Assembly (NCBI GenBank): GCA_963775315.1
Contig: CAVZIN010000003.1
Location: 72,011-136,010 of the forward strand
DNA from: an uncultured Alphaproteobacteria bacterium
Lineage (GTDB): Bacteria > Pseudomonadota > Alphaproteobacteria > MPNO01 > DASWLB01
DNA: 64,000 bases
Direction of reading: 5' to 3'
Part shown: positions 23,364 to 62,863 of the stretch, piece after piece
Layout of the letters: every line of letters begins with the position of its first letter
How positions within the stretch are numbered: position 1 is the first letter of the stretch
Translations under genes and position numbers: made by a program
Notes under the pieces: model-generated
Seen by the model: the letters and a program-made list of their open reading frames with translations, nothing else
Told to the model about the DNA's origin: nothing
The model's database searches: none

Positions 23364-24695
23364 ATGACGGTGGCGCGGGCGAGAGGCGGATTGCGGCAGG
23401 TTGGGCCCGAGGCGCTTGTGTTGCGGCGCCGCCGCGCCGGGCGCGGGTTCGTCTATCTCGACGAGAAGGGCCGCCAGGTGCGCGACCGCGCGACCCTCGC
23501 CCGCATCCGGAGCCTCGCCGTGCCGCCCGCCTACGAGGACGTGCAGATCGCGCGCGACGCCGACGCCCACCTGCAGGCCGTCGGGCGCGACGCGGCGGGG
23601 CGCGTCCAGTACCGCTATCACCCCGCCTGGACCGAGGAGCGCGAGGCGCGCAAGGTCGAGCGGCTGGGCGCGCTTGCCGCTGCCCTGCCGCACCTCCGCC
23701 GCAGCGTCGCCCGCGACCTCGCACGGCCCGAGCTGTGCCGTCGCCGGGTCCTCGCCGCCGTGATCTCGCTGATCGACAAGACCCACGTCCGCATCGGGTG
23801 CGAGGACTACGTCCATACCGGGCGGAGCCGCGGCGCGGCGACGCTCCTCAAGCGCAACGTGCGGGTCGCTGGCGACCGGGTAGCACTCGACTTCCGCGGC
23901 AAGGGCGGGCGGGCGATCGAGTGCGCGGTGCGCGCGCCGGCGCTCGCCCGCACGGTCCGCGCGCTCAAGCGCCAGCCGGGACCGCGCCTGTTCCGCTTTC
24001 GCGGCGAGGACGGCAGGCTGCACAACCTGACCGCCGCCGACGCCAACGCCTATCTGCAAGAGGTGACGGGCGAGGGGGTGACGGCGAAGGACTTCCGCAC
24101 GCTCGCGGCGACCGCGACGGCGGCCGAGCGGCTCGGCGCGCTCGAGCCGGGCCCCAGCGCCACCGCGCGGCGGCGCCAGATCAACGGCGTGATGCGCGAG
24201 ATCGCCGAGATGCTGGCCAACACCCCCGCCGTCACGCGTAAGAGCTACGTCCACCGCCGGCTGGTCGACGCTTTCGAGCGGGGCACGCTTGCCTCGCTCG
24301 TTGCCGGCTGCGACCGGCCGCGCGGCCTCGCCTGTGGCGAGGCGGTGGTCGCCGCCCTGTTCTCGCCGACGGGCGGGACTGACCGCCCCGGAACCCGTTC
24401 CTGCCGCGCACGTTGGTGGGGCGATCCGGGTTGCTGGAAGGGAACGAGCCATGCCCGCGAAGTCGAAGAAGCAGCAGATGGCCGCGGGAGCGGCGCTCTC
24501 GGCCAAGCGCGGCGAGCGCAAGAAGTCGAGCCTCCGCGGCGCCTCCGAAGGGATGGTCGAATCGATGAGCGAGAAGGAGCTCGAGCGCATGGCGAGCACC
24601 AAGCGCAAGGGAAAGCCGACGACCGCGAACAAGACGTCGAGCGCGAAGTCGACGTCCTCGAAGAAGAAATAGCCGGCCTCAGATCTCCTTCATGA
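23364..24695 (+). CDS. DNA topoisomerase IB (poxvirus/eukaryote-like TopIB)
   Basis: 'GFVYLDEKGRQVRD...IRSLAVPPAY...LQAVGRDAAGRVQYRYH...TAKDFRTLAAT...NTPAVTRKSYVHRRL' includes the catalytic Tyr context SYVH. Its ATG is at 23364. The homologous part should end near ~24390, but the frame has no stop until 24695, so the 3' end is uncertain. Confidence 0.6.
   Translation: MTVARARGGLRQVGPEALVLRRRRAGRGFVYLDEKGRQVRDRATLARIRSLAVPPAYEDVQIARDADAHLQAVGRDAAGRVQYRYHPAWTEEREARKVERLGALAAALPHLRRSVARDLARPELCRRRVLAAVISLIDKTHVRIGCEDYVHTGRSRGAATLLKRNVRVAGDRVALDFRGKGGRAIECAVRAPALARTVRALKRQPGPRLFRFRGEDGRLHNLTAADANAYLQEVTGEGVTAKDFRTLAATATAAERLGALEPGPSATARRRQINGVMREIAEMLANTPAVTRKSYVHRRLVDAFERGTLASLVAGCDRPRGLACGEAVVAALFSPTGGTDRPGTRSCRARWWGDPGCWKGTSHAREVEEAADGRGSGALGQARRAQEVEPPRRLRRDGRIDEREGARAHGEHQAQGKADDREQDVEREVDVLEEEIAGLRSPS
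24451..24672 (+). CDS. DUF3008-family small basic protein
   Basis: 'MPAKSKKQQMAAGAALSAKRGE...SEKELERMASTKRKG' matches the characteristic DUF3008 start. GGAAGGGAA lies upstream. Confidence 0.8.
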   Translation: MPAKSKKQQMAAGAALSAKRGERKKSSLRGASEGMVESMSEKELERMASTKRKGKPTTANKTSSAKSTSSKKK

Positions 24696-25575
24696 TCTGG
24701 GCGTAGGAGAGGAGCGCGAACAGCGCGGTGCCGCCCACCACGTTGCCGGCGAGCACGGGGGCGGTGAAGGCCCACAGCATATGGCCGAGCGCGAGCTCGC
24801 CGTTCACCACCAGCAGAAACGCTTCCACGCTGCCGGCCACGATGTGGGCGAAGCCTGCCGCCGCGATCAGATAGGTGATCACGGTGACGACGTGGAACTG
24901 GGTCTCGCGCGCGCTCGGGATCAGCCACACCATGGTCGCGATCAGGAATCCGGCCGCGATGGCCCGGAAGAACATGCTTGGCCAGTCGTGCGCCATGCCG
25001 TGGCGGCTGATCTCCAGCATGCCGGCCTTGAGTTCGGGCGAGACGACCGGGGTGAAGGTAATGAAGCAGGCCGCGACCAGCGTGCCCGTCATGTTGGCGA
25101 GGAAAACGATGGTCCACATGCGGCCGAGCTTGCCGACGTTGGTCCAGGTGAAGTCGGCCATCACCGGCAGCACGACGGTCACCGTGTTCTCGGTGAAAAG
25201 CTGCTGGCGGCTCAGCACCACGATCAGGAAGCCGACCGAATAGCCGAGGCTCGATACGCCTCGTTCCCACGGCGCGTCGGGCAGGTAGCTCCGCAGCACC
25301 GCCTGGGCGAGCAGCGAGAAGCTGATGGACAGCCCGGCGGCGACGCCGGACCACCAGAGCGAGGTCGCGGGGCGCTGGATCTCCTCGTCGCCATGGCGGC
25401 GGACGATTTCGTAGATGACCGGCGTGCGCGGCGCCGAAAGCTCGTCGATCTCCTCGAGCTCCTGCTCGGTGATGGGCGAGCCCTCGACCGGCCGCTCCGC
25501 GCCGCGTTCCGCGTCGCCGTTCCCGGCACCGCGCTCCTTCGCCGGCCGCCGCGACAATTCGAAGCCTTCCGCCAA
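24679..25575 (-). CDS. Formate/nitrite transporter (FNT) family channel
   Basis: FNT fold with 'QQLFTENT' and multiple TM segments. It has an N-terminal cytoplasmic extension of about 70 aa. Confidence 0.8.
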   Translation of the reverse strand: MAEGFELSRRPAKERGAGNGDAERGAERPVEGSPITEQELEEIDELSAPRTPVIYEIVRRHGDEEIQRPATSLWWSGVAAGLSISFSLLAQAVLRSYLPDAPWERGVSSLGYSVGFLIVVLSRQQLFTENTVTVVLPVMADFTWTNVGKLGRMWTIVFLANMTGTLVAACFITFTPVVSPELKAGMLEISRHGMAHDWPSMFFRAIAAGFLIATMVWLIPSARETQFHVVTVITYLIAAAGFAHIVAGSVEAFLLVVNGELALGHMLWAFTAPVLAGNVVGGTALFALLSYAQIMKEI

Positions 25576-25587
25576 CTCAGTCGCGGC

Positions 25588-26067
25588 TCACGCCGGTTCG
25601 CGCTCGCGCACCGGCGGGGCGTGGAGGGCCGCCTTGCCGTCGGTCGCGACCAGCCGCCGCGCGAGCGCCTCGACCGCGCTCGTCACCGTCTCGACCCCGC
25701 GCCGCCCGTCGGCCGCGATCAGCAGCAGCCGCGGCGCGCCCCCGCCGAGCTCGTGGACCAGTTCCAGCATGGCGCGCGGATCGAGGCCGGGCGCGCGCGG
25801 CGCCGGCCGTCCGGGACGTGGCGGCAGCGCCGCCTCGGTGACCGCGAGGGGATCGGCCGGCGTGTCGCGGGTCGTGCCGTGGACCAGCACGACCGCGTCG
25901 TACCCGTCCGCGGCGGCATAGGCCAGGTCAACCTCGCGCACGCCGAAATCGACCACCTCCACGCCTTGCGGCTGGGGGCGGCGGGCAAGCCGGCGCGCGA
26001 CCGCGACGCCAAACGCCTCGTCGCCGCGCGGCGGCTCGGCAATACCGGTGATCAGGATGCGGCACAT
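25588..26067 (-). CDS. Hydrogenase maturation protease-like protein (HyaD/HybD/HycI superfamily)
   Basis: 'MCRILITGIAEPPRGDEAFGVAVARRL...GVEVVDFGV' resembles the HybD N-terminus (GxxxxxDE(A)xG), though the second metal ligand appears substituted. The ATG has a GAGGGA SD upstream. Confidence 0.55.
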   Translation of the reverse strand: MCRILITGIAEPPRGDEAFGVAVARRLARRPQPQGVEVVDFGVREVDLAYAAADGYDAVVLVHGTTRDTPADPLAVTEAALPPRPGRPAPRAPGLDPRAMLELVHELGGGAPRLLLIAADGRRGVETVTSAVEALARRLVATDGKAALHAPPVREREPA

Positions 26068-26173
26068 CGGGTCCCTCGCTGAGTACGGACCCTGCATGCT
26101 CCGCCGGCCGGCGGGAAGCGGCACTAACCTTGGCTAAGCGGGCGCCGCCGGCACGCGCCGGCGGCGCCGTCGC

Positions 26174-27052
26174 CTACGAAAACAGCTCGCTGTGGCCGGC
26201 GTGGTCGTGGTCGAGCGCGACGCGCAGCTTGTCGAGCGCCTTGCCTTCGATCTGGCGGATGCGCTCCTTGGTGACGCCGAAGCTCGCGCCGATCTCGGCG
26301 AGAGTCGTGCGACCGTCGCCCAGGAAGCGCGCCGCGATGATCTGGCGCTCGCGCGGGGTGAGCGAGTCGAGCGCCTCGTTGAGCCAGCGCGAGCGCACGC
26401 TGCGGTCGTGCCGGTCGGTCACGACCTCTTCCGGGCTCGGCCCGTCGTCGGCCAGGAAGTCCTGCAGCTCGTCCGTGTCCTCGTCGCCGATCGAGGCGTT
26501 GAGCGAGCGGTCGGGCCGCGACAGGTGTGCCTCCATCCGCTCGACCGCCGCGAGCGGCACGCCGAGCGCCTGGGCGATCGACTGGCGCTGCTCGTCCGTC
26601 ATCGAGGTGGCCGTGGCGCCGCCCAGCTTGGCGCGCAGCCGGCGCAGGTTGAAGAACAGGCTCTTCTGCGCGGGCGTCGTGCCGATGCGGACGATCGAGG
26701 CGTTGCGCACGATGTATTCCTGGATCGCCGCCATGATCCACCAGGTGGCGTAGGTCGAGAAGCGGACCTCGCGCTCCGGGTCGAACCGGTTGGCGGCTTC
26801 CATCAGCCCGACATTGCCTTCCTGGATCAGGTCGTTCAGCGGCAGGCCATAGCCGCGGAACCGGCCGGCGATCCGCACCACGAGGCGGATGTGGCTGGTG
26901 ATGATCTCGTGCAGGGCCTTCTGGTCGCGCTCGTCGCGCCACCGGCGGGCGAGATCGACCTCGTGCTCGCGCTCCAGGAGGGGCGCGTCCATCGCCTGCG
27001 AGATGTAGCGCCGATCGTTGCGGTCGGGTGTTCCGGGGTTCGCATATGCCAT
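26174..27052 (-). CDS. rpoH: RNA polymerase sigma-32 factor RpoH
   Basis: Sigma-70 regions 2-4 plus the RpoH box 'QKSLFFNLRRLRAK'. Confidence 0.9.
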   Translation of the reverse strand: MAYANPGTPDRNDRRYISQAMDAPLLEREHEVDLARRWRDERDQKALHEIITSHIRLVVRIAGRFRGYGLPLNDLIQEGNVGLMEAANRFDPEREVRFSTYATWWIMAAIQEYIVRNASIVRIGTTPAQKSLFFNLRRLRAKLGGATATSMTDEQRQSIAQALGVPLAAVERMEAHLSRPDRSLNASIGDEDTDELQDFLADDGPSPEEVVTDRHDRSVRSRWLNEALDSLTPRERQIIAARFLGDGRTTLAEIGASFGVTKERIRQIEGKALDKLRVALDHDHAGHSELFS

Positions 27053-27209
27053 TTGCAGTACTCCGTCCCGGGGCTGGCGTCCGGGGACCTGAGGCGGCGC
27101 GTGCGCCGCACCATTTGCTATCGAGTCGATAATATAATTTGACCCCGCCCCGTTTGCAACCAGTTACCCATGCGCTATATCGCTCCGATACCAAAGGAGG
27201 AAGCACCGC

Positions 27210-27788
27210 TTGGCCAACTCGCGACACGTGGCGGATATGCTCGACCGGCTGGCCCGGATCGCGCACGGCGCCCAGTTCTGCGCGGGGCTCAACCCGGCCC
27301 AGTGGGAGGCGCTGCGCTTCCTCGCACGCGCAAACCGCTATTCCCGCTCGCCCGGCGCCATCGCCGACTATCTCGGCGCCACGCGAGGCACCATCTCCCA
27401 GACGCTTATTGCCTTGGAATCGAAGGGTTATATCCGGCGCAGCCGGTGCTCGGCCGACAAGCGCGGGGTCGACGTGGCGCTGACCGAGGCGGGGCGCGCG
27501 GTGCTTTGCCAGGACCCGCTCACCGTGCTCGGTGCTTCGGTGGCGGCGCTCGGCGAGGAGGAACGCGGCGTGCTCTCGCGCGTGATCGACCGGGTGTTCG
27601 AGCAGGTCCAGCAGGCCAAGGGGATTTGCGCCTTCGGCCGCTGCCGCGACTGCTGCCACCTGAAGCCGGGCGAGGGCGAAACGGCCAAGATGGAAGCCAC
27701 CGCCCCCGGCGCCTGCCGCTGCGGCGTCACCGGCGATTCGCTGAAATCCGACGAACTCAACCAGATCTGCGTCGATTTCCGGCCCTGA
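27210..27788 (+). CDS. MarR-family transcriptional regulator with C-terminal cysteine-rich extension
   Basis: MarR winged helix ('LNPAQWEALRFL...GTISQTLIALESKGYIRRSRCSADKRGVDVALTEAG'). The tail 'CAFGRCRDCCHLKPG...ACRCGV' carries 7 Cys in about 35 aa. Confidence 0.85.
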   Translation: MANSRHVADMLDRLARIAHGAQFCAGLNPAQWEALRFLARANRYSRSPGAIADYLGATRGTISQTLIALESKGYIRRSRCSADKRGVDVALTEAGRAVLCQDPLTVLGASVAALGEEERGVLSRVIDRVFEQVQQAKGICAFGRCRDCCHLKPGEGETAKMEATAPGACRCGVTGDSLKSDELNQICVDFRP

Positions 27789-27917
27789 CGCCGGCCCGGC
27801 CGATCTTCGCGGTATCATAATACCGCGCCCTTAATCCCCTGCCGTACAATGCATTTTTACGGTTGACCTGCGCGTGCGGCGTGGCATATTCCGCCGTCGC
27901 CGAAAGGACCCTGAACG

Positions 27918-28382
27918 ATGAAAACCTATTCCGCCCGGGCACAGGACGTGACCCGCAAATGGGTGGTGATCGACGCCGACGGGCTGGTGCTCGGGCGTCT
28001 CGCCAGCCTGGTCGCCATGCGCCTCCGGGGCAAGCACAAGCCGATCTTCACGCCGCACGTCGATTGCGGCGACAACGTGATTATCGTCAACGCCGAGAAG
28101 GTGCGGCTGACCGGCCACAAGTACGAGGACAAGGTCTTCTACTGGCACACCGGCCATCCCGGCGGCATCAAGGGCCGCACCGCCCGCGCGACGCTGGAGG
28201 GGGCGCACCCCGACCGGCTGATCACCAAGGCGGTGGAGCGCATGGTGCCGCGCAACAATCTGGGCCGCGACGTGATGCGCAAGCTGCACGTCTATGCCGG
28301 TCCGAGCCATCCGCACGAGGCCCAGAAGCCCGAGCCTCTCGACATCGGCGCGATGAACCGCAAGAACAGAAGGAGCGCCTGA
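27918..28382 (+). CDS. rplM: 50S ribosomal protein L13
   Basis: '[30 protein letters not shown]...' is a canonical L13. Confidence 0.95.
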
Positions 28383-60199: not shown

Positions 60200-62863
60200 G
60201 TGTTGGCTGCAACGGTGACCCTGCCCGAGATCGTTTCCCGATTCGGCGCATCGGCGAAAGCCAAATTGTCGAACAAGGCGGTCAGCGGGGCTCCCGAGGA
60301 TCAGCTTCGGGCCCCGATGGAGGAACTCATCGCCGGCTTCGCCGTGCTCGCCGGCCAGCCGGCGGGCGCCGTCGTGGCGGTGGGAGAATCCTCCTTGTCC
60401 GATATCAAGACGCGCCCCGACTACGCCATCACCCTGCACAACGCCTTGATCGGATTCATCGAGCTCAAGGCGCCAGGGAAAGGCGCGGACCCGCGGAAAT
60501 TTCATGACCCGCACGACCGGGAGCAATGGGACAAGCTCAAGTCGCTGCCGAACCTGATCTACACGGACGGGAACGCCTTCAGCCTCTGGCGAGACGGCAA
60601 GCTGGAAGGATCGATCCTACGATTCGAGGGCGATATCGAAACAGCCGGAGCCTCGCTCGCGGCAACATCGGCGTTGACCGCGCTATTCGGAACGTTCTTC
60701 CAATGGCAACCCATCCCTCCCCGAAACGCCCCGCAATTGGCGGAGGTCAGCGCGCGCCTCTGCCGATTGTTGCGGGACGAGGTATCGGAGCAACTGGCGC
60801 TTGGAAGCAAATCCCTCACCAGCCTGGCGCAAGACTGGCGAAAACTCCTGTTTCCGCAGGCTTCCGATGCGGTGTTCGCCGATGGCTACGCGCAGGCGGT
60901 AACGTTCGGCTTGCTGATGGCACGAGCGCAGGGAATTTCGCTCGCCGAGGGGCTGGACCATGTCGCGCGCGACCTGCAAAAGACGAACTCGCTCATCGGC
61001 ACCGCCCTCAAAGTTCTCACCGATCAAGCGGAGAACCAGGCGACGTTGAAGACCTCGCTGGCCACGCTTACGCGTGTCTTGGATGTGGTGGATTGGGCGA
61101 AGGTGAGCAAGGGCGACCCGGAGGCTTGGCTCTATTTTTACGAGCGCTTCCTGAGCGTCTATGACAACGACCTCCGCAAGAAGACGGGCTCGTACTACAC
61201 GCCACCCGAAATCGTCAACGCCATGGTCCGTATGGTGGACGACCTGCTTCGCGACCCCAACCGCTTCGGGCTGACGGGCGGACTGGCTTCTCCTGACGTT
61301 ACGCTCGCCGATCCCGCGATGGGGACAAGGGTCTTTCAAGGGGTGCAGCAGCCGGTTTGCATCGTGATCGCGTCTCGCATGGCCGACACGGACCCTGAAA
61401 CTCCGGCGCGGGTTCGGTTTCACTCGCTTCCGAACGGTCGGCGCGAGGAAAAGTTCGAGGCGATTTCCAAGCTGTCGGTGGGCGGTGCGGCCTGGACGGA
61501 CTGCCCCGCCGAATGGCGCGCTCCCTTCCTGCCGGCGCCGGTAGGTGCGTGGGCGTCCTTCCCCAGCCTGGAGGATTTGTTCGTCTATGACGGGTCGGGC
61601 GTCATGCCGGGCCGGACCTGGGTGATCGCACCTGACGCAGCGTCCCTGCGCGACCGATGGGATCGATTGGTGCACGAGAGGGATCCCGAGGTGAAGGAGA
61701 ACTTGTTCCATCCACACATTGTTGGCGGGCAACCGGCGGATAAGCATTCACGGAAGGCTGCTAAATCCGGCCTGTCCGGACACGAATACCGGGCACCTTC
61801 CGTTGCGAACGATCGAGGCCCAATCGTAAATCCCACGAGGTATGGCTTCCGTTCGTTTGACCGACAATGGGTAATTCCAGACAATAGGCTGCTTAACCGA
61901 TCTAATCCAACACTGTGGAAAGAATACTCAGGTTCGCAGATTTATCTGACCGCGCCGCATGACAGGTCAGCGACAGCTGGTGCAGCATTGACATTCACCG
62001 AGCTCATTCCAGATTTGCACCATTACAACGGGAGGGGCGGCCGCGTGTTCCCTCTGTGGTTCGATGGCAAGGCCACGGTTTCCAATATCAAACCGGCGCT
62101 GCGGCAGGTCCTATCGGATCGATTGGCGAATCCCGTTTCCGGCGAGGATGTCTTCGCGTACGTCGCCGCAATTGCGGCCCATCCCGGTTATGTGGCGCGG
62201 TTCAAATCCGATCTGGTTCAGCCGGGCCTTCGGATTCCGATCACTTCGGACCCGAAGCTGTTCCACGAAGCGGTCCGGCTTGGGCGACAAATCGTATGGC
62301 TTCACACGTTCGGCGAGCGGTTCGTCTCCGCCGAAGAAGGTCGGCCGCCGGGCCCGCCTCGCCTGCCGGAAGGCAAAGCTCCGCGAATACCCGCAGCAGG
62401 CGCGATTCCATCGGCACCGGACAAGATGCCGAACTCGATTTCCTATGACGAGAACAAGCGGCGTCTGTTCGTCGGCGACGGCTACATCGACAATGTGGCG
62501 CCGGGCGAATGGACCTATGAGGTCTCCGGAAAGCAGGTGCTGGTACAATGGTTCAGCTACCGCCGCCGCGACCGCGAGCGGCCGATCATCGGTGATCGGC
62601 GACAGCCGTCGCCCTTGAACGACATTCAGCCGGACCACTGGGTCGCGGAATACACCACCGAGTTGATGAACGTCCTGAACGTGCTCGGTCGATTGGTGGA
62701 GCTCGAGCCGGCGCTGGCGGACCTGCTCGACCGGATTTGCAAAGGGCCGCTCCTGTCCGCCGACAGCCTTCGGGCCGAAGGCGCCTTCGACGTTCCGGCG
62801 GATTTCGGAAGCCAACTTTTGTCCAAATCGACGGACGAGCGTCAAGGCGAGCTTCTGGAATAG
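60200..62863 (+). CDS. MmeI/type-ISP-like restriction-modification family protein: PD-(D/E)xK nuclease-like N-terminus, N6-MTase motifs X/I (GSYYTPPEIV, DPAMGT) but no NPPY motif, type-ISP-like C-terminal specificity domain
   Basis: 'RPDYAITLHNALIGFIELKAP' (D...ExK), 'YERFLSVYDNDLRKKTGSYYTPPEIVNAMV', 'LADPAMGT', and a C-terminal 'NPTRYGFRSFDRQWVIPDN...'. The GC content is visibly lower than the surrounding sequence. Confidence 0.65.
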   Translation: MLAATVTLPEIVSRFGASAKAKLSNKAVSGAPEDQLRAPMEELIAGFAVLAGQPAGAVVAVGESSLSDIKTRPDYAITLHNALIGFIELKAPGKGADPRKFHDPHDREQWDKLKSLPNLIYTDGNAFSLWRDGKLEGSILRFEGDIETAGASLAATSALTALFGTFFQWQPIPPRNAPQLAEVSARLCRLLRDEVSEQLALGSKSLTSLAQDWRKLLFPQASDAVFADGYAQAVTFGLLMARAQGISLAEGLDHVARDLQKTNSLIGTALKVLTDQAENQATLKTSLATLTRVLDVVDWAKVSKGDPEAWLYFYERFLSVYDNDLRKKTGSYYTPPEIVNAMVRMVDDLLRDPNRFGLTGGLASPDVTLADPAMGTRVFQGVQQPVCIVIASRMADTDPETPARVRFHSLPNGRREEKFEAISKLSVGGAAWTDCPAEWRAPFLPAPVGAWASFPSLEDLFVYDGSGVMPGRTWVIAPDAASLRDRWDRLVHERDPEVKENLFHPHIVGGQPADKHSRKAAKSGLSGHEYRAPSVANDRGPIVNPTRYGFRSFDRQWVIPDNRLLNRSNPTLWKEYSGSQIYLTAPHDRSATAGAALTFTELIPDLHHYNGRGGRVFPLWFDGKATVSNIKPALRQVLSDRLANPVSGEDVFAYVAAIAAHPGYVARFKSDLVQPGLRIPITSDPKLFHEAVRLGRQIVWLHTFGERFVSAEEGRPPGPPRLPEGKAPRIPAAGAIPSAPDKMPNSISYDENKRRLFVGDGYIDNVAPGEWTYEVSGKQVLVQWFSYRRRDRERPIIGDRRQPSPLNDIQPDHWVAEYTTELMNVLNVLGRLVELEPALADLLDRICKGPLLSADSLRAEGAFDVPADFGSQLLSKSTDERQGELLE

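Follow-up and report, generated by a model that had tools for sequence, protein, structure and literature searches.

A gene for a MarR-type regulator whose C-terminal domain carries four invariant cysteines (MarR-Cys4) is found divergent from the heat-shock sigma factor gene rpoH in the 64,000-nucleotide stretch of DNA analysed here, referred to as the window. Comparison of related loci strongly supports a regulatory link of this regulator to rpoH and to its own gene. On balance, we lean towards reading the protein as an autoregulated repressor of rpoH with a Cys4 metal centre (Zn or Fe-S) that is inactivated by oxidative or nitrosative stress. The architecture of the protein, the invariance of the four cysteines, the pairing with rpoH, the operator motif with its enrichment and position, and the redox genes next to the regulator in a sister clade are observations. 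That the regulator binds DNA, that it represses and does not activate, and that it contains a metal, as well as which metal and which signal, we infer. The features of the locus are collected in Table 1.

Table 1. Features of the rpoH-regulator locus, with positions counted from the first nucleotide of the window.
Feature	Position	Strand	Remarks
rpoH (sigma-32), divergent gene	26174..27052	-	NCBIfam NF005693, 374.6 bits against a cut-off of 315
Operator O1 (predicted), TATCGAGTCGATA	27119..27131		Perfect 6-1-6 palindrome; rpoH-proximal; matches the consensus TATCGASTCGATA
Sigma-70-like rpoH promoter (predicted)	27131..27159	-	-35 TTGCAA 27159-27154, 17-nt spacer, -10 TATATT 27136-27131; promoter scan
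Tentative regulator promoter	27154..27181	+	Palindromic TTGCAA as -35, 16-nt spacer, -10-like TATATC 27176-27181 overlapping O2; low confidence
Operator O2 (predicted), TATCGCTCCGATA	27178..27190		Outer 5+5 palindrome, atypical centre; regulator-proximal
Shine-Dalgarno AAGGAGG	27194..27200	+	9 nt ahead of the TTG start; read from the sequence
MarR-Cys4 regulator gene	27210..27788	+	192 aa plus stop; ORF with translation and homologues
Winged helix-turn-helix, aa 26-100	27285..27509	+	Includes the family-invariant GLNPAQW and T-x-GT-x-SQTL (recognition helix)
C-terminal Cys4 domain, aa 138-192	27621..27785	+	Cys invariance in alignments; pLDDT 85-91 outside the loop
Variable loop of the Cys4 domain, aa 149-170			Sole poorly modelled part
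Invariant Cys codons	C145 27642-27644; C148 27651-27653; C171 27720-27722; C187 27768-27770	+	
Promoter-like site of rplM itself	27863-27890		Promoter scan

Profile, fold and operator logic all place the regulator in the MarR family. Residues 26-87 matched both PF12802 (50.8 bits, cut-off 27) and PF01047 (38.7 bits, cut-off 24.6), which bears out the normal MarR winged helix described in the first-pass annotation, and the predicted structure of the monomer has the three-dimensional fold of the family, with helices alpha1 to alpha6 and a wing. A palindromic operator in the protein's own, divergent promoter region is indicated by the comparative evidence given below. The scores of the regulator with the NCBIfam models for OhrR, MarR and SlyA were all far under the cut-offs. 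Homologues numbered 1420 in a search of 5.8 billion proteins, with near-full-length coverage among the matches listed. The existing labels of the members are generic, "MarR family transcriptional regulator" or in a few cases plain "transcriptional regulator". Two JGI entries of the family are labelled as emrRAB repressors.

Two alignments were used to find the conserved positions, one of 120 close homologues and one of 61 sequences that spans both the rpoH-linked clade and a sister clade, with 28-36% identity to the window protein. The positions invariant in the two clades are the four cysteines, F142 and T58, G60, S63 and Q64 of the recognition helix. None of the cysteines in the body of the protein, before residue 145, is conserved among the 120 homologues; C24 is present in 27 and C80 in 52 of them, and at the position of C100 cysteine is outside the six commonest residues of the alignment column. 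No column with an invariant His or Glu was found in either alignment.

The divergent orientation towards rpoH, first seen in the window, is kept in a wide range of genomes. The divergent gene encodes a sigma factor with an RpoH-box-like stretch, QKSLFFNLR. A scan with one genome per species, covering 185,579 species representatives, gave 514 relatives of the regulator, and the best 80 loci were examined. Most of these have alphaproteobacterial labels, among them Defluviicoccus, Ferrovibrio, Sneathiellaceae, Marinibaculum, Desertibaculum and many MAGs. The rpoH gene is divergent from and adjacent to the regulator gene in 77 of the 80 loci, with protein identities down to 41%. Two of the three remaining loci have no upstream DNA, and the third, in a Bauldia MAG, has a cytochrome c gene instead.

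There is no third conserved neighbour in the 80 loci, the next most frequent gene being found in 25. The first-pass annotation also drew attention to the position upstream of rplM-rpsI. This is true of the window, where rplM starts at 27918, but argC/rplM is found downstream of the regulator only in the three closest relatives. A functional link between the regulator and rplM-rpsI was rejected on account of this restricted synteny and of the promoter-like site that rplM has of its own. The rplM-rpsI context of the regulator is incidental.

The intergenic regions between rpoH and the regulator gene share a palindrome of 13 bp, a size that fits what MarR/SlyA dimers bind. The pattern TATCG-N3-CGATA, with the three centre positions free, was used to scan 746 kb of DNA from the 80 loci. 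Of 43 perfect matches, 41 were found within the 15.9 kb of rpoH-regulator intergenic DNA, as were 108 of 126 matches with at most one mismatch; the enrichment of the palindrome in these regions is approximately 900-fold. In the 158 sites from which the consensus was built, the centre is conserved as A, G/C and T (132, 146 and 147 sites, respectively). The centre positions are thus conserved though they were left free in the search, and therefore the operator of the family can be given the 13-bp palindromic consensus TATCGASTCGATA.

At least two sites were found in 70 of 78 regions. They are mostly 45-47 bp apart, with a spacing of 57-59 bp in a minority that includes the window, where the start of O1 and the start of O2 are separated by 59 bp. 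The counterparts of O2 in the three closest relatives (L001-L003) are TATCGCTTCGATA and TATCGCACCGATA. O1 and O2 are the only perfect TATCG-N3-CGATA sites in the whole 64 kb of the window. One site with a single mismatch, at 62112, was considered as a further operator and rejected; it is inside a long ORF and within chance expectation.

The same operators were found with other target genes in the sister clade. When metagenome contigs were scanned without bias for the dual operator, 39 loci were obtained, of which approximately 22 had the rpoH arrangement. Another 14 of the 39 contained a distant MarR-Cys4 protein (29-44% identity) and no rpoH. The divergent operon in these 14 loci encodes an AhpC/TSA-Redoxin protein with a CPGC motif, its gene preceded either by a cytochrome P460 gene or by a gene for a secreted protein of about 250 amino acids lacking an assigned function, and one of the loci also has two thioredoxin/glutaredoxin-like proteins.

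A search seeded with a sister-clade protein extended the family to Gammaproteobacteria (Thioalkalivibrio, Woeseiaceae), Myxococcota (Myxococcus, Pyxidicoccus) and a Xenococcaceae cyanobacterium. The divergent neighbour is a cytochrome P460 gene in Thioalkalivibrio paradoxus, the gene for an AhpD-family peroxidase in Myxococcus sp. CA051A and that for a homologue of the secreted protein of about 250 amino acids in the Xenococcaceae cyanobacterium. All three loci have two operator-like sites, 46-52 bp apart. Where the neighbour is cytochrome P460, NO or hydroxylamine is indicated no less than thiol oxidants.

As judged from these loci, the operator travels with the MarR-Cys4 regulator while the target gene changes. 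The operator appears to follow the regulator and not rpoH, which argues that the MarR-Cys4 protein is what binds it. The putative targets that can be identified outside the rpoH-linked clade are oxidative or nitrosative defence genes; the association with redox genes comes from the sister clade and not from the rpoH-linked clade.

The operators are placed at predicted promoters. The promoter scan at this locus found two sites against 0.1 expected, both of which are consensus matches only. The last base of the predicted rpoH -10 is the first base of O1 on the minus strand. This register between -10 and operator is repeated in three other loci (L016, L043 and L119), where it is the sole site called in each, and it is the same in L119 though the target gene there is not rpoH. 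Over 66 intergenic regions, a -10-like hexamer is present at the fixed register in 43, compared with about 6 in shifted registers, and a -10 together with a recognisable -35 at 16-18 bp in 23, compared with about 3.

On the regulator side, the TTGCAA hexamer may do double duty, serving as the rpoH -35 on one strand and as the candidate regulator -35 on the other. The hexamers of the regulator promoter are conserved in the three closest relatives with a variable spacer. This promoter is non-canonical, with a -10 that lacks the final T, and was not called in the promoter scan. A stretch TTG…CTATAT upstream of the regulator gene is suggestive of a possible RpoH-type promoter. An RNA thermometer in the rpoH leader (27035-27125, minus strand) was considered and rejected, the predicted fold being no more stable than those of shuffled sequences (z = 0.61).

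An operator that overlaps the -10/+1 region is in the classical position of a repressor, and therefore both repression of rpoH and autorepression are suggested. The first-pass annotation had proposed, from the divergent position, an input to rpoH or to the regulator's own expression; the pairing in 77 of 80 loci, the enrichment of the operator and the predicted abutment of O1 on the rpoH -10 all favour that proposal.

Some MarR/SlyA proteins activate or counter-silence. It is very unlikely that the regulator activates rpoH or acts dually, or that a different factor binds the palindromes. Activation would agree with the second operator, which in the clade with 45-47 bp spacing is upstream of the predicted rpoH -35, and the promoters are themselves predictions. 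The proximal operator, however, overlaps -10/+1 at a fixed register, as a classical repressor site would. A binding factor specific for rpoH is unlikely because the neighbour shifts from rpoH to redoxin, P460 or AhpD genes while the two operators remain beside the MarR-Cys4 gene.

The remaining part of the proposed repressor is its tail. The first-pass annotation was right in giving the tail seven cysteines (C140, C145, C148, C149, C169, C171 and C187), out of ten in the protein as a whole; this is far more than ordinary composition would place in the last 53 residues. It was mistaken about the end of the protein, which it placed at "...CRCGV". The string that it quoted contains six of the cysteines (C140, C145, C148, C149, C169 and C171), and 19 more residues follow, TGDSLKSDELNQICVDFRP, in which C187 is found.

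Conservation of the tail in orthologs, which the first-pass annotation had proposed as a check, was found for four of the seven cysteines. C145, C148, C171 and C187 are each present in 120 of 120 close homologues. They show no exception in any full-length homologue examined, including the 61 sequences, which come from Alpha- and Gammaproteobacteria, Myxococcota and Cyanobacteria. The other three are lineage-specific, with C169 in 86, C149 in 29 and C140 in 15 of the 120 homologues. The spacing between C171 and C187 is exactly 15 residues in all 120 sequences, and the loop between C148 and C171 varies from 12 to 27 residues, giving the motif C-x2-C-x12-27-C-x15-C within about 55 residues. Besides the cysteines, G143 is found in all of the 120, and F142 and F190 come close to invariance. 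A frameshifted C-terminus, which would have made the tail unique to this sequence, is ruled out because the tail is conserved, with near-full-length homologues that have the four core cysteines invariant.

Within the full-length protein the Cys4 domain is predicted with confidence (pLDDT 85-91 outside the loop). Modelled alone it reached a pLDDT of 61.9, and a structural search with that poor model gave no match. Profile searches with the domain against Pfam, NCBIfam and PDB sequences gave no significant match. When E-values up to 1-10 were allowed in Pfam and NCBIfam, only sub-threshold matches reflecting cysteine composition were seen, and a DUF702/LRP1 zinc finger was rejected as the identity of the tail (E 0.016-0.33; 17.9 bits, cut-off 42).

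A profile restricted to the domain matched 467 proteins among 1.84 billion cluster representatives. The 150 of these matches that were listed are all at most 263 amino acids long, and are either MarR-sized proteins with the domain at the C-terminus or short fragments; no fusion to a non-MarR domain was found among these 150. The long or odd matches are MarR proteins with N-terminal extensions, or fragments, and in each of the full-length or longer matches checked the domain follows a MarR domain on its C-terminal side. On the basis of these searches, the Cys4 domain is an unannotated module that appears specific to the family.

The suggestion in the first-pass annotation that the cysteines form a metal- or redox-sensing module stands in part. 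The four invariant cysteines in a small domain and the redox genes of the sister clade speak for it, and redox or metal sensing by the Cys4 domain is plausible. The term "ribbon" finds no support, since only one CxxC knuckle is conserved; the two CxxC/CxxH knuckles on two beta-hairpins of a classical zinc ribbon are not found in the domain. The irregular spacing of the cysteines is compatible with either a Zn or an Fe-S cofactor.

Where a small domain has an invariant Cys4 site, that site very often binds Zn in a structural role. The four cysteines could thus be purely structural, holding together the dimer or the C-terminal fold, with a ligand of the MarR cleft, temperature or the load of unfolded protein as the signal. 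The body of the regulator is an ordinary MarR fold, and heat is an obvious signal where, as in the rpoH-linked clade, the target is the heat-shock sigma factor. Signals of the temperature type have precedents in other heat-shock repressors and in the MarR/SlyA-type thermosensor RovA. Against this, the family is defined by the Cys4 domain and by no other feature, and nothing else co-varies with the domain. The regulator and operator of the sister clade face thiol-redox, peroxidase and P460 genes and not chaperone genes, and no gene for ligand metabolism or efflux is among the conserved neighbours. A purely structural site is rated as rather unlikely.

A sensing role for the four cysteines could also take the form of an Fe-S cluster through which cellular iron, Fe-S status or O2 tension is read, as in IscR, RirA, SufR and FNR, with a homeostatic output. 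The cysteines are the only invariant candidate ligands, their spacing is irregular as in SufR and ArnR, and the single CxxC knuckle is unlike a classical zinc ribbon. In SufR of cyanobacteria and mycobacteria the cysteines are spaced C-x12-C-x13-C-x14-C, from which the C-x2-C-x12-27-C-x15-C of the regulator differs. SufR and ArnR have a layout like that of the regulator, with an N-terminal winged helix, a dimerisation helix and a C-terminal domain that bears the cysteines. ArnR of Corynebacterium, a winged helix-turn-helix protein with C-terminal Cys ligands, binds a [4Fe-4S] cluster, and NO abolishes its binding to DNA; its C-terminal domain is larger, weakly resembles TRAPPC3 and contains three cysteines (PMC12343034).

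No homology of the sensory domain to SufR or ArnR was found, whether by profile search of PDB sequences, as a recurrent Pfam match or with SufR-type NCBIfam models, and the regulator has no sequence similarity to models of SufR, IscR or ArnR. Neither clade has a suf, isc or iron-uptake gene among its conserved neighbours. The named carriers include Myxococcus, Thioalkalivibrio and a cyanobacterium, which we take to be aerobes, and this too counts against a sensor of iron status or O2 tension. The probability of such a sensor is judged to be low.

CopY is a winged-helix repressor of the BlaI/MecI family in which a C-terminal CxCx4CxC metal site decides DNA binding at copper-efflux operons. Like the regulator it combines a winged helix with a short C-terminal site of four cysteines, but it differs in the family of the winged helix-turn-helix, in the spacing of the cysteines and in its targets, there being no copper-efflux genes near the regulator. 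By analogy, the Cys4 domain could sense a thiophilic metal (Cu(I), Cd or Hg) through displacement of Zn. The order of winged helix-turn-helix, dimerisation helix and C-terminal Cys4 is the same in both; against this, no gene for a metal efflux pump, chaperone or metallothionein adjoins the regulator in the approximately 120 loci examined, and sensing of such a metal is hardly credible.

The preferred reading, a metal-thiolate centre that is inactivated by oxidants or NO, places the regulator beside other sensors and yet, by sequence, it is outside the functionally closest MarR subfamilies, OhrR/SarZ/MgrA and AdcR/ZitR. In AdcR and ZitR, Zn is bound by His/Glu sites in the MarR body and activates DNA binding. 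The regulator differs from these two in its Cys4 appendage, in having no invariant His or Glu and in having no Zn-uptake neighbours. According to a 2024 review, AdcR and ZitR, which control Zn uptake, are the only characterised MarR metalloregulators (PMC11672702). The oxidation-sensing members of the family, OhrR, SarZ, MgrA, AbfR and MosR, are homodimeric repressors that bind palindromes in or near their own promoter regions; their input is cysteine chemistry, their output is antioxidant or thiol-redox genes and oxidation leads to derepression (PMC11672702). The MarR fold and the palindromes near the own promoter are common to these proteins and the regulator. These proteins, however, sense through one or two cysteines of the body, chiefly a conserved N-terminal one, where the regulator has none conserved; the conserved cysteines of the regulator are in a separate C-terminal domain of four, and in the rpoH-linked clade its putative target is a sigma factor gene.

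The anti-sigma factors ChrR and RsrA act by protein-protein sequestration and have an HxxxCxxC zinc motif. In the regulator, no His stands four residues ahead of the CxxC, the sequence being F-G-x-C-x-x-C, and the fold is a DNA-binding one. ChrR-RpoE-rpoHII of Rhodobacter and RsrA-SigR of Streptomyces follow the logic proposed for the regulator, a redox signal that raises the activity of a stress sigma factor, while the regulator would differ in being a candidate DNA-binding repressor that acts directly at the rpoH promoter. In R. sphaeroides, rpoHII is transcribed by RpoE once ChrR has released it, and oxidative stress thereby raises an rpoH paralogue (PMC7074977, PMC3441632).

The mechanism that we propose can be described as follows. 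The 157 bp between the divergent genes contain the two 13-bp palindromes (consensus TATCGASTCGATA), to which the regulator would bind as a dimer. Bound at O1, the dimer would cover the transcription-start region of the sigma-70-type rpoH promoter, and bound at O2 the core promoter from which the regulator itself is expressed. From the last dimerisation helix the chain would lead straight into the Cys4 domain of about 55 residues, where C145-x2-C148 and C171-x15-C187 would hold the metal cofactor, Zn(II) or an Fe-S cluster. The reduced, metal-loaded regulator would be the repressing state. Attack on the thiolate/metal centre by oxidants or NO would unfold the Cys4 domain and lower the affinity of the dimer for DNA until it is lost, with the result that rpoH and the regulator gene would both be derepressed. 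In the sister clade the derepressed genes would be those of antioxidant enzymes.

Most of what is known about the control of sigma-32 comes from E. coli, with an mRNA thermosensor and chaperone- and FtsH-dependent turnover, and from a few Alphaproteobacteria, with autoregulation and ECF-dependent rpoH2/rpoHII. To our knowledge there is no dedicated sensor-repressor on an rpoH promoter, and none was found in the open-access literature, nor was a description of the MarR-Cys4 family found there. What is undescribed is thus both the candidate sensory domain, Cys4, and the wiring of a MarR regulator to sigma-32.

A wider reading, offered tentatively and with rather less than even confidence, is that MarR-Cys4 is an ancient, unrecognised class of one-component redox/NO sensors, in which a MarR body is joined to a metal-thiolate domain (Zn or Fe-S) that is new and about 55 residues long. 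The class would have kept its pair of 13-bp operators from Cyanobacteria and Myxococcota to Proteobacteria. In one large lineage of Alphaproteobacteria its output would have been rewired from antioxidant enzymes to rpoH, giving redox-gated transcription of sigma-32.

The Cys4 domain, absent from Pfam, NCBIfam and PDB sequences, defines a family of at least four phyla, with members in Alpha- and Gammaproteobacteria, Myxococcota and Cyanobacteria, and the near-invariant operator can be used to predict regulons in the genomes that carry it. A Cys4 member, if it binds metal, would extend the MarR metalloregulators beyond sensors of Zn uptake. If the proposed mechanism is true, the circuit is a simple one of one protein, two 13-bp sites and four cysteines. 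Transcription of the sigma-32 gene would then be gated directly by the redox state, a mode of control not described so far, and the carriers would couple proteostasis to redox and nitrosative stress at the level of rpoH transcription.

The regulator gene, divergent from rpoH, encodes a MarR protein with a C-terminal four-Cys domain (MarR-Cys4). Two ORFs downstream of rpoH are common to the closest relatives only and gave family matches below threshold, to a hydrogenase maturation protease for one (40.3 bits; cut-off 47.45) and to a formate/nitrite transporter for the other (74.7 bits; cut-off 232.3). In the window a sigma-70-like site is predicted ahead of rplM, and the interval from the regulator gene to rplM showed no terminator-like site.

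In the presumed rpoH 5' leader lies the inverted repeat GCGGCGCGTGCGCCGC, which is rich in GC. As RNA, 27035-27125 (reverse strand) folded no more stably than shuffled sequences did (z = 0.61), and the candidate RNA thermometer in this leader was therefore rejected for want of evidence. In the Defluviicoccus-like clade (loci L007, L009-L012, L016 and L021) the regulator starts approximately 100 nt downstream of O2, the regulator-proximal predicted operator, and its 5' leader carries the conserved blocks gaaattttcttgcc, ggggtggccgaac and gttctaagtaa, in that order.

Positions of the features at and beyond the rpoH-regulator locus
Feature	Locus	Positions	Strand	Remarks
Two ORFs	window	24679-26124	-	downstream of rpoH
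Inverted repeat	window	27094-27109		presumed rpoH 5' leader
O1, predicted operator	window	27119-27131		rpoH-proximal
Sigma-70-like site, predicted	window	27863-27890		ahead of rplM; TTGACC-16-CATATT, extended TG
Secreted-protein gene	L086	957-1682
Secreted-protein gene	L100	2202-2951
Secreted-protein gene	L104	4470-5225
Secreted-protein gene	L118	1594-2418
Secreted-protein gene	L124	3155-3907
Dual-operator pattern match	L088	1251-1307
Dual-operator pattern match	L107	3121-3177
Broken rpoH, dual operator	L094	397-1402
MarR-Cys4-like and cytochrome c genes	L067	3755-5567		Bauldia sp. MAG

The metagenome contigs L088 and L107 match the 26-base dual-operator pattern and have neither regulator nor rpoH; both are rich in repeats and low in GC (0.38-0.40), and the matches are probably a palindromic repeat unrelated to the operator. 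L094, where rpoH is broken into two overlapping ORFs with a dual operator alongside and no adjacent MarR-Cys4 gene, may have decayed or may have been misassembled. In L067 a MarR-Cys4-like gene, whose product has a divergent C-terminal end (…AICAIQEP), adjoins a cytochrome c gene; rpoH is absent and the intergenic region has no operator.

From Proteobacteria to a cyanobacterium, the gene divergent from MarR-Cys4 repeatedly encodes a secreted protein of approximately 230-275 amino acids. The proteobacterial and cyanobacterial proteins are 40% identical (E 5e-48), share the conserved stretch TSHPDFDDTPL(Y/W)DE…H(S/T)HWVVL and gave no match in Pfam, NCBIfam or PDB.

GANTC, the CcrM methylation motif in Alphaproteobacteria, is found at the centre of 126 of the 158 predicted operator sites in the 80 best genome loci of regulator relatives, because the palindrome is TCGA-N-TCGA. 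In the window, O1 has GAGTC at its centre and O2 has no GANTC. Binding to the predicted operators could be open to modulation by methylation state.
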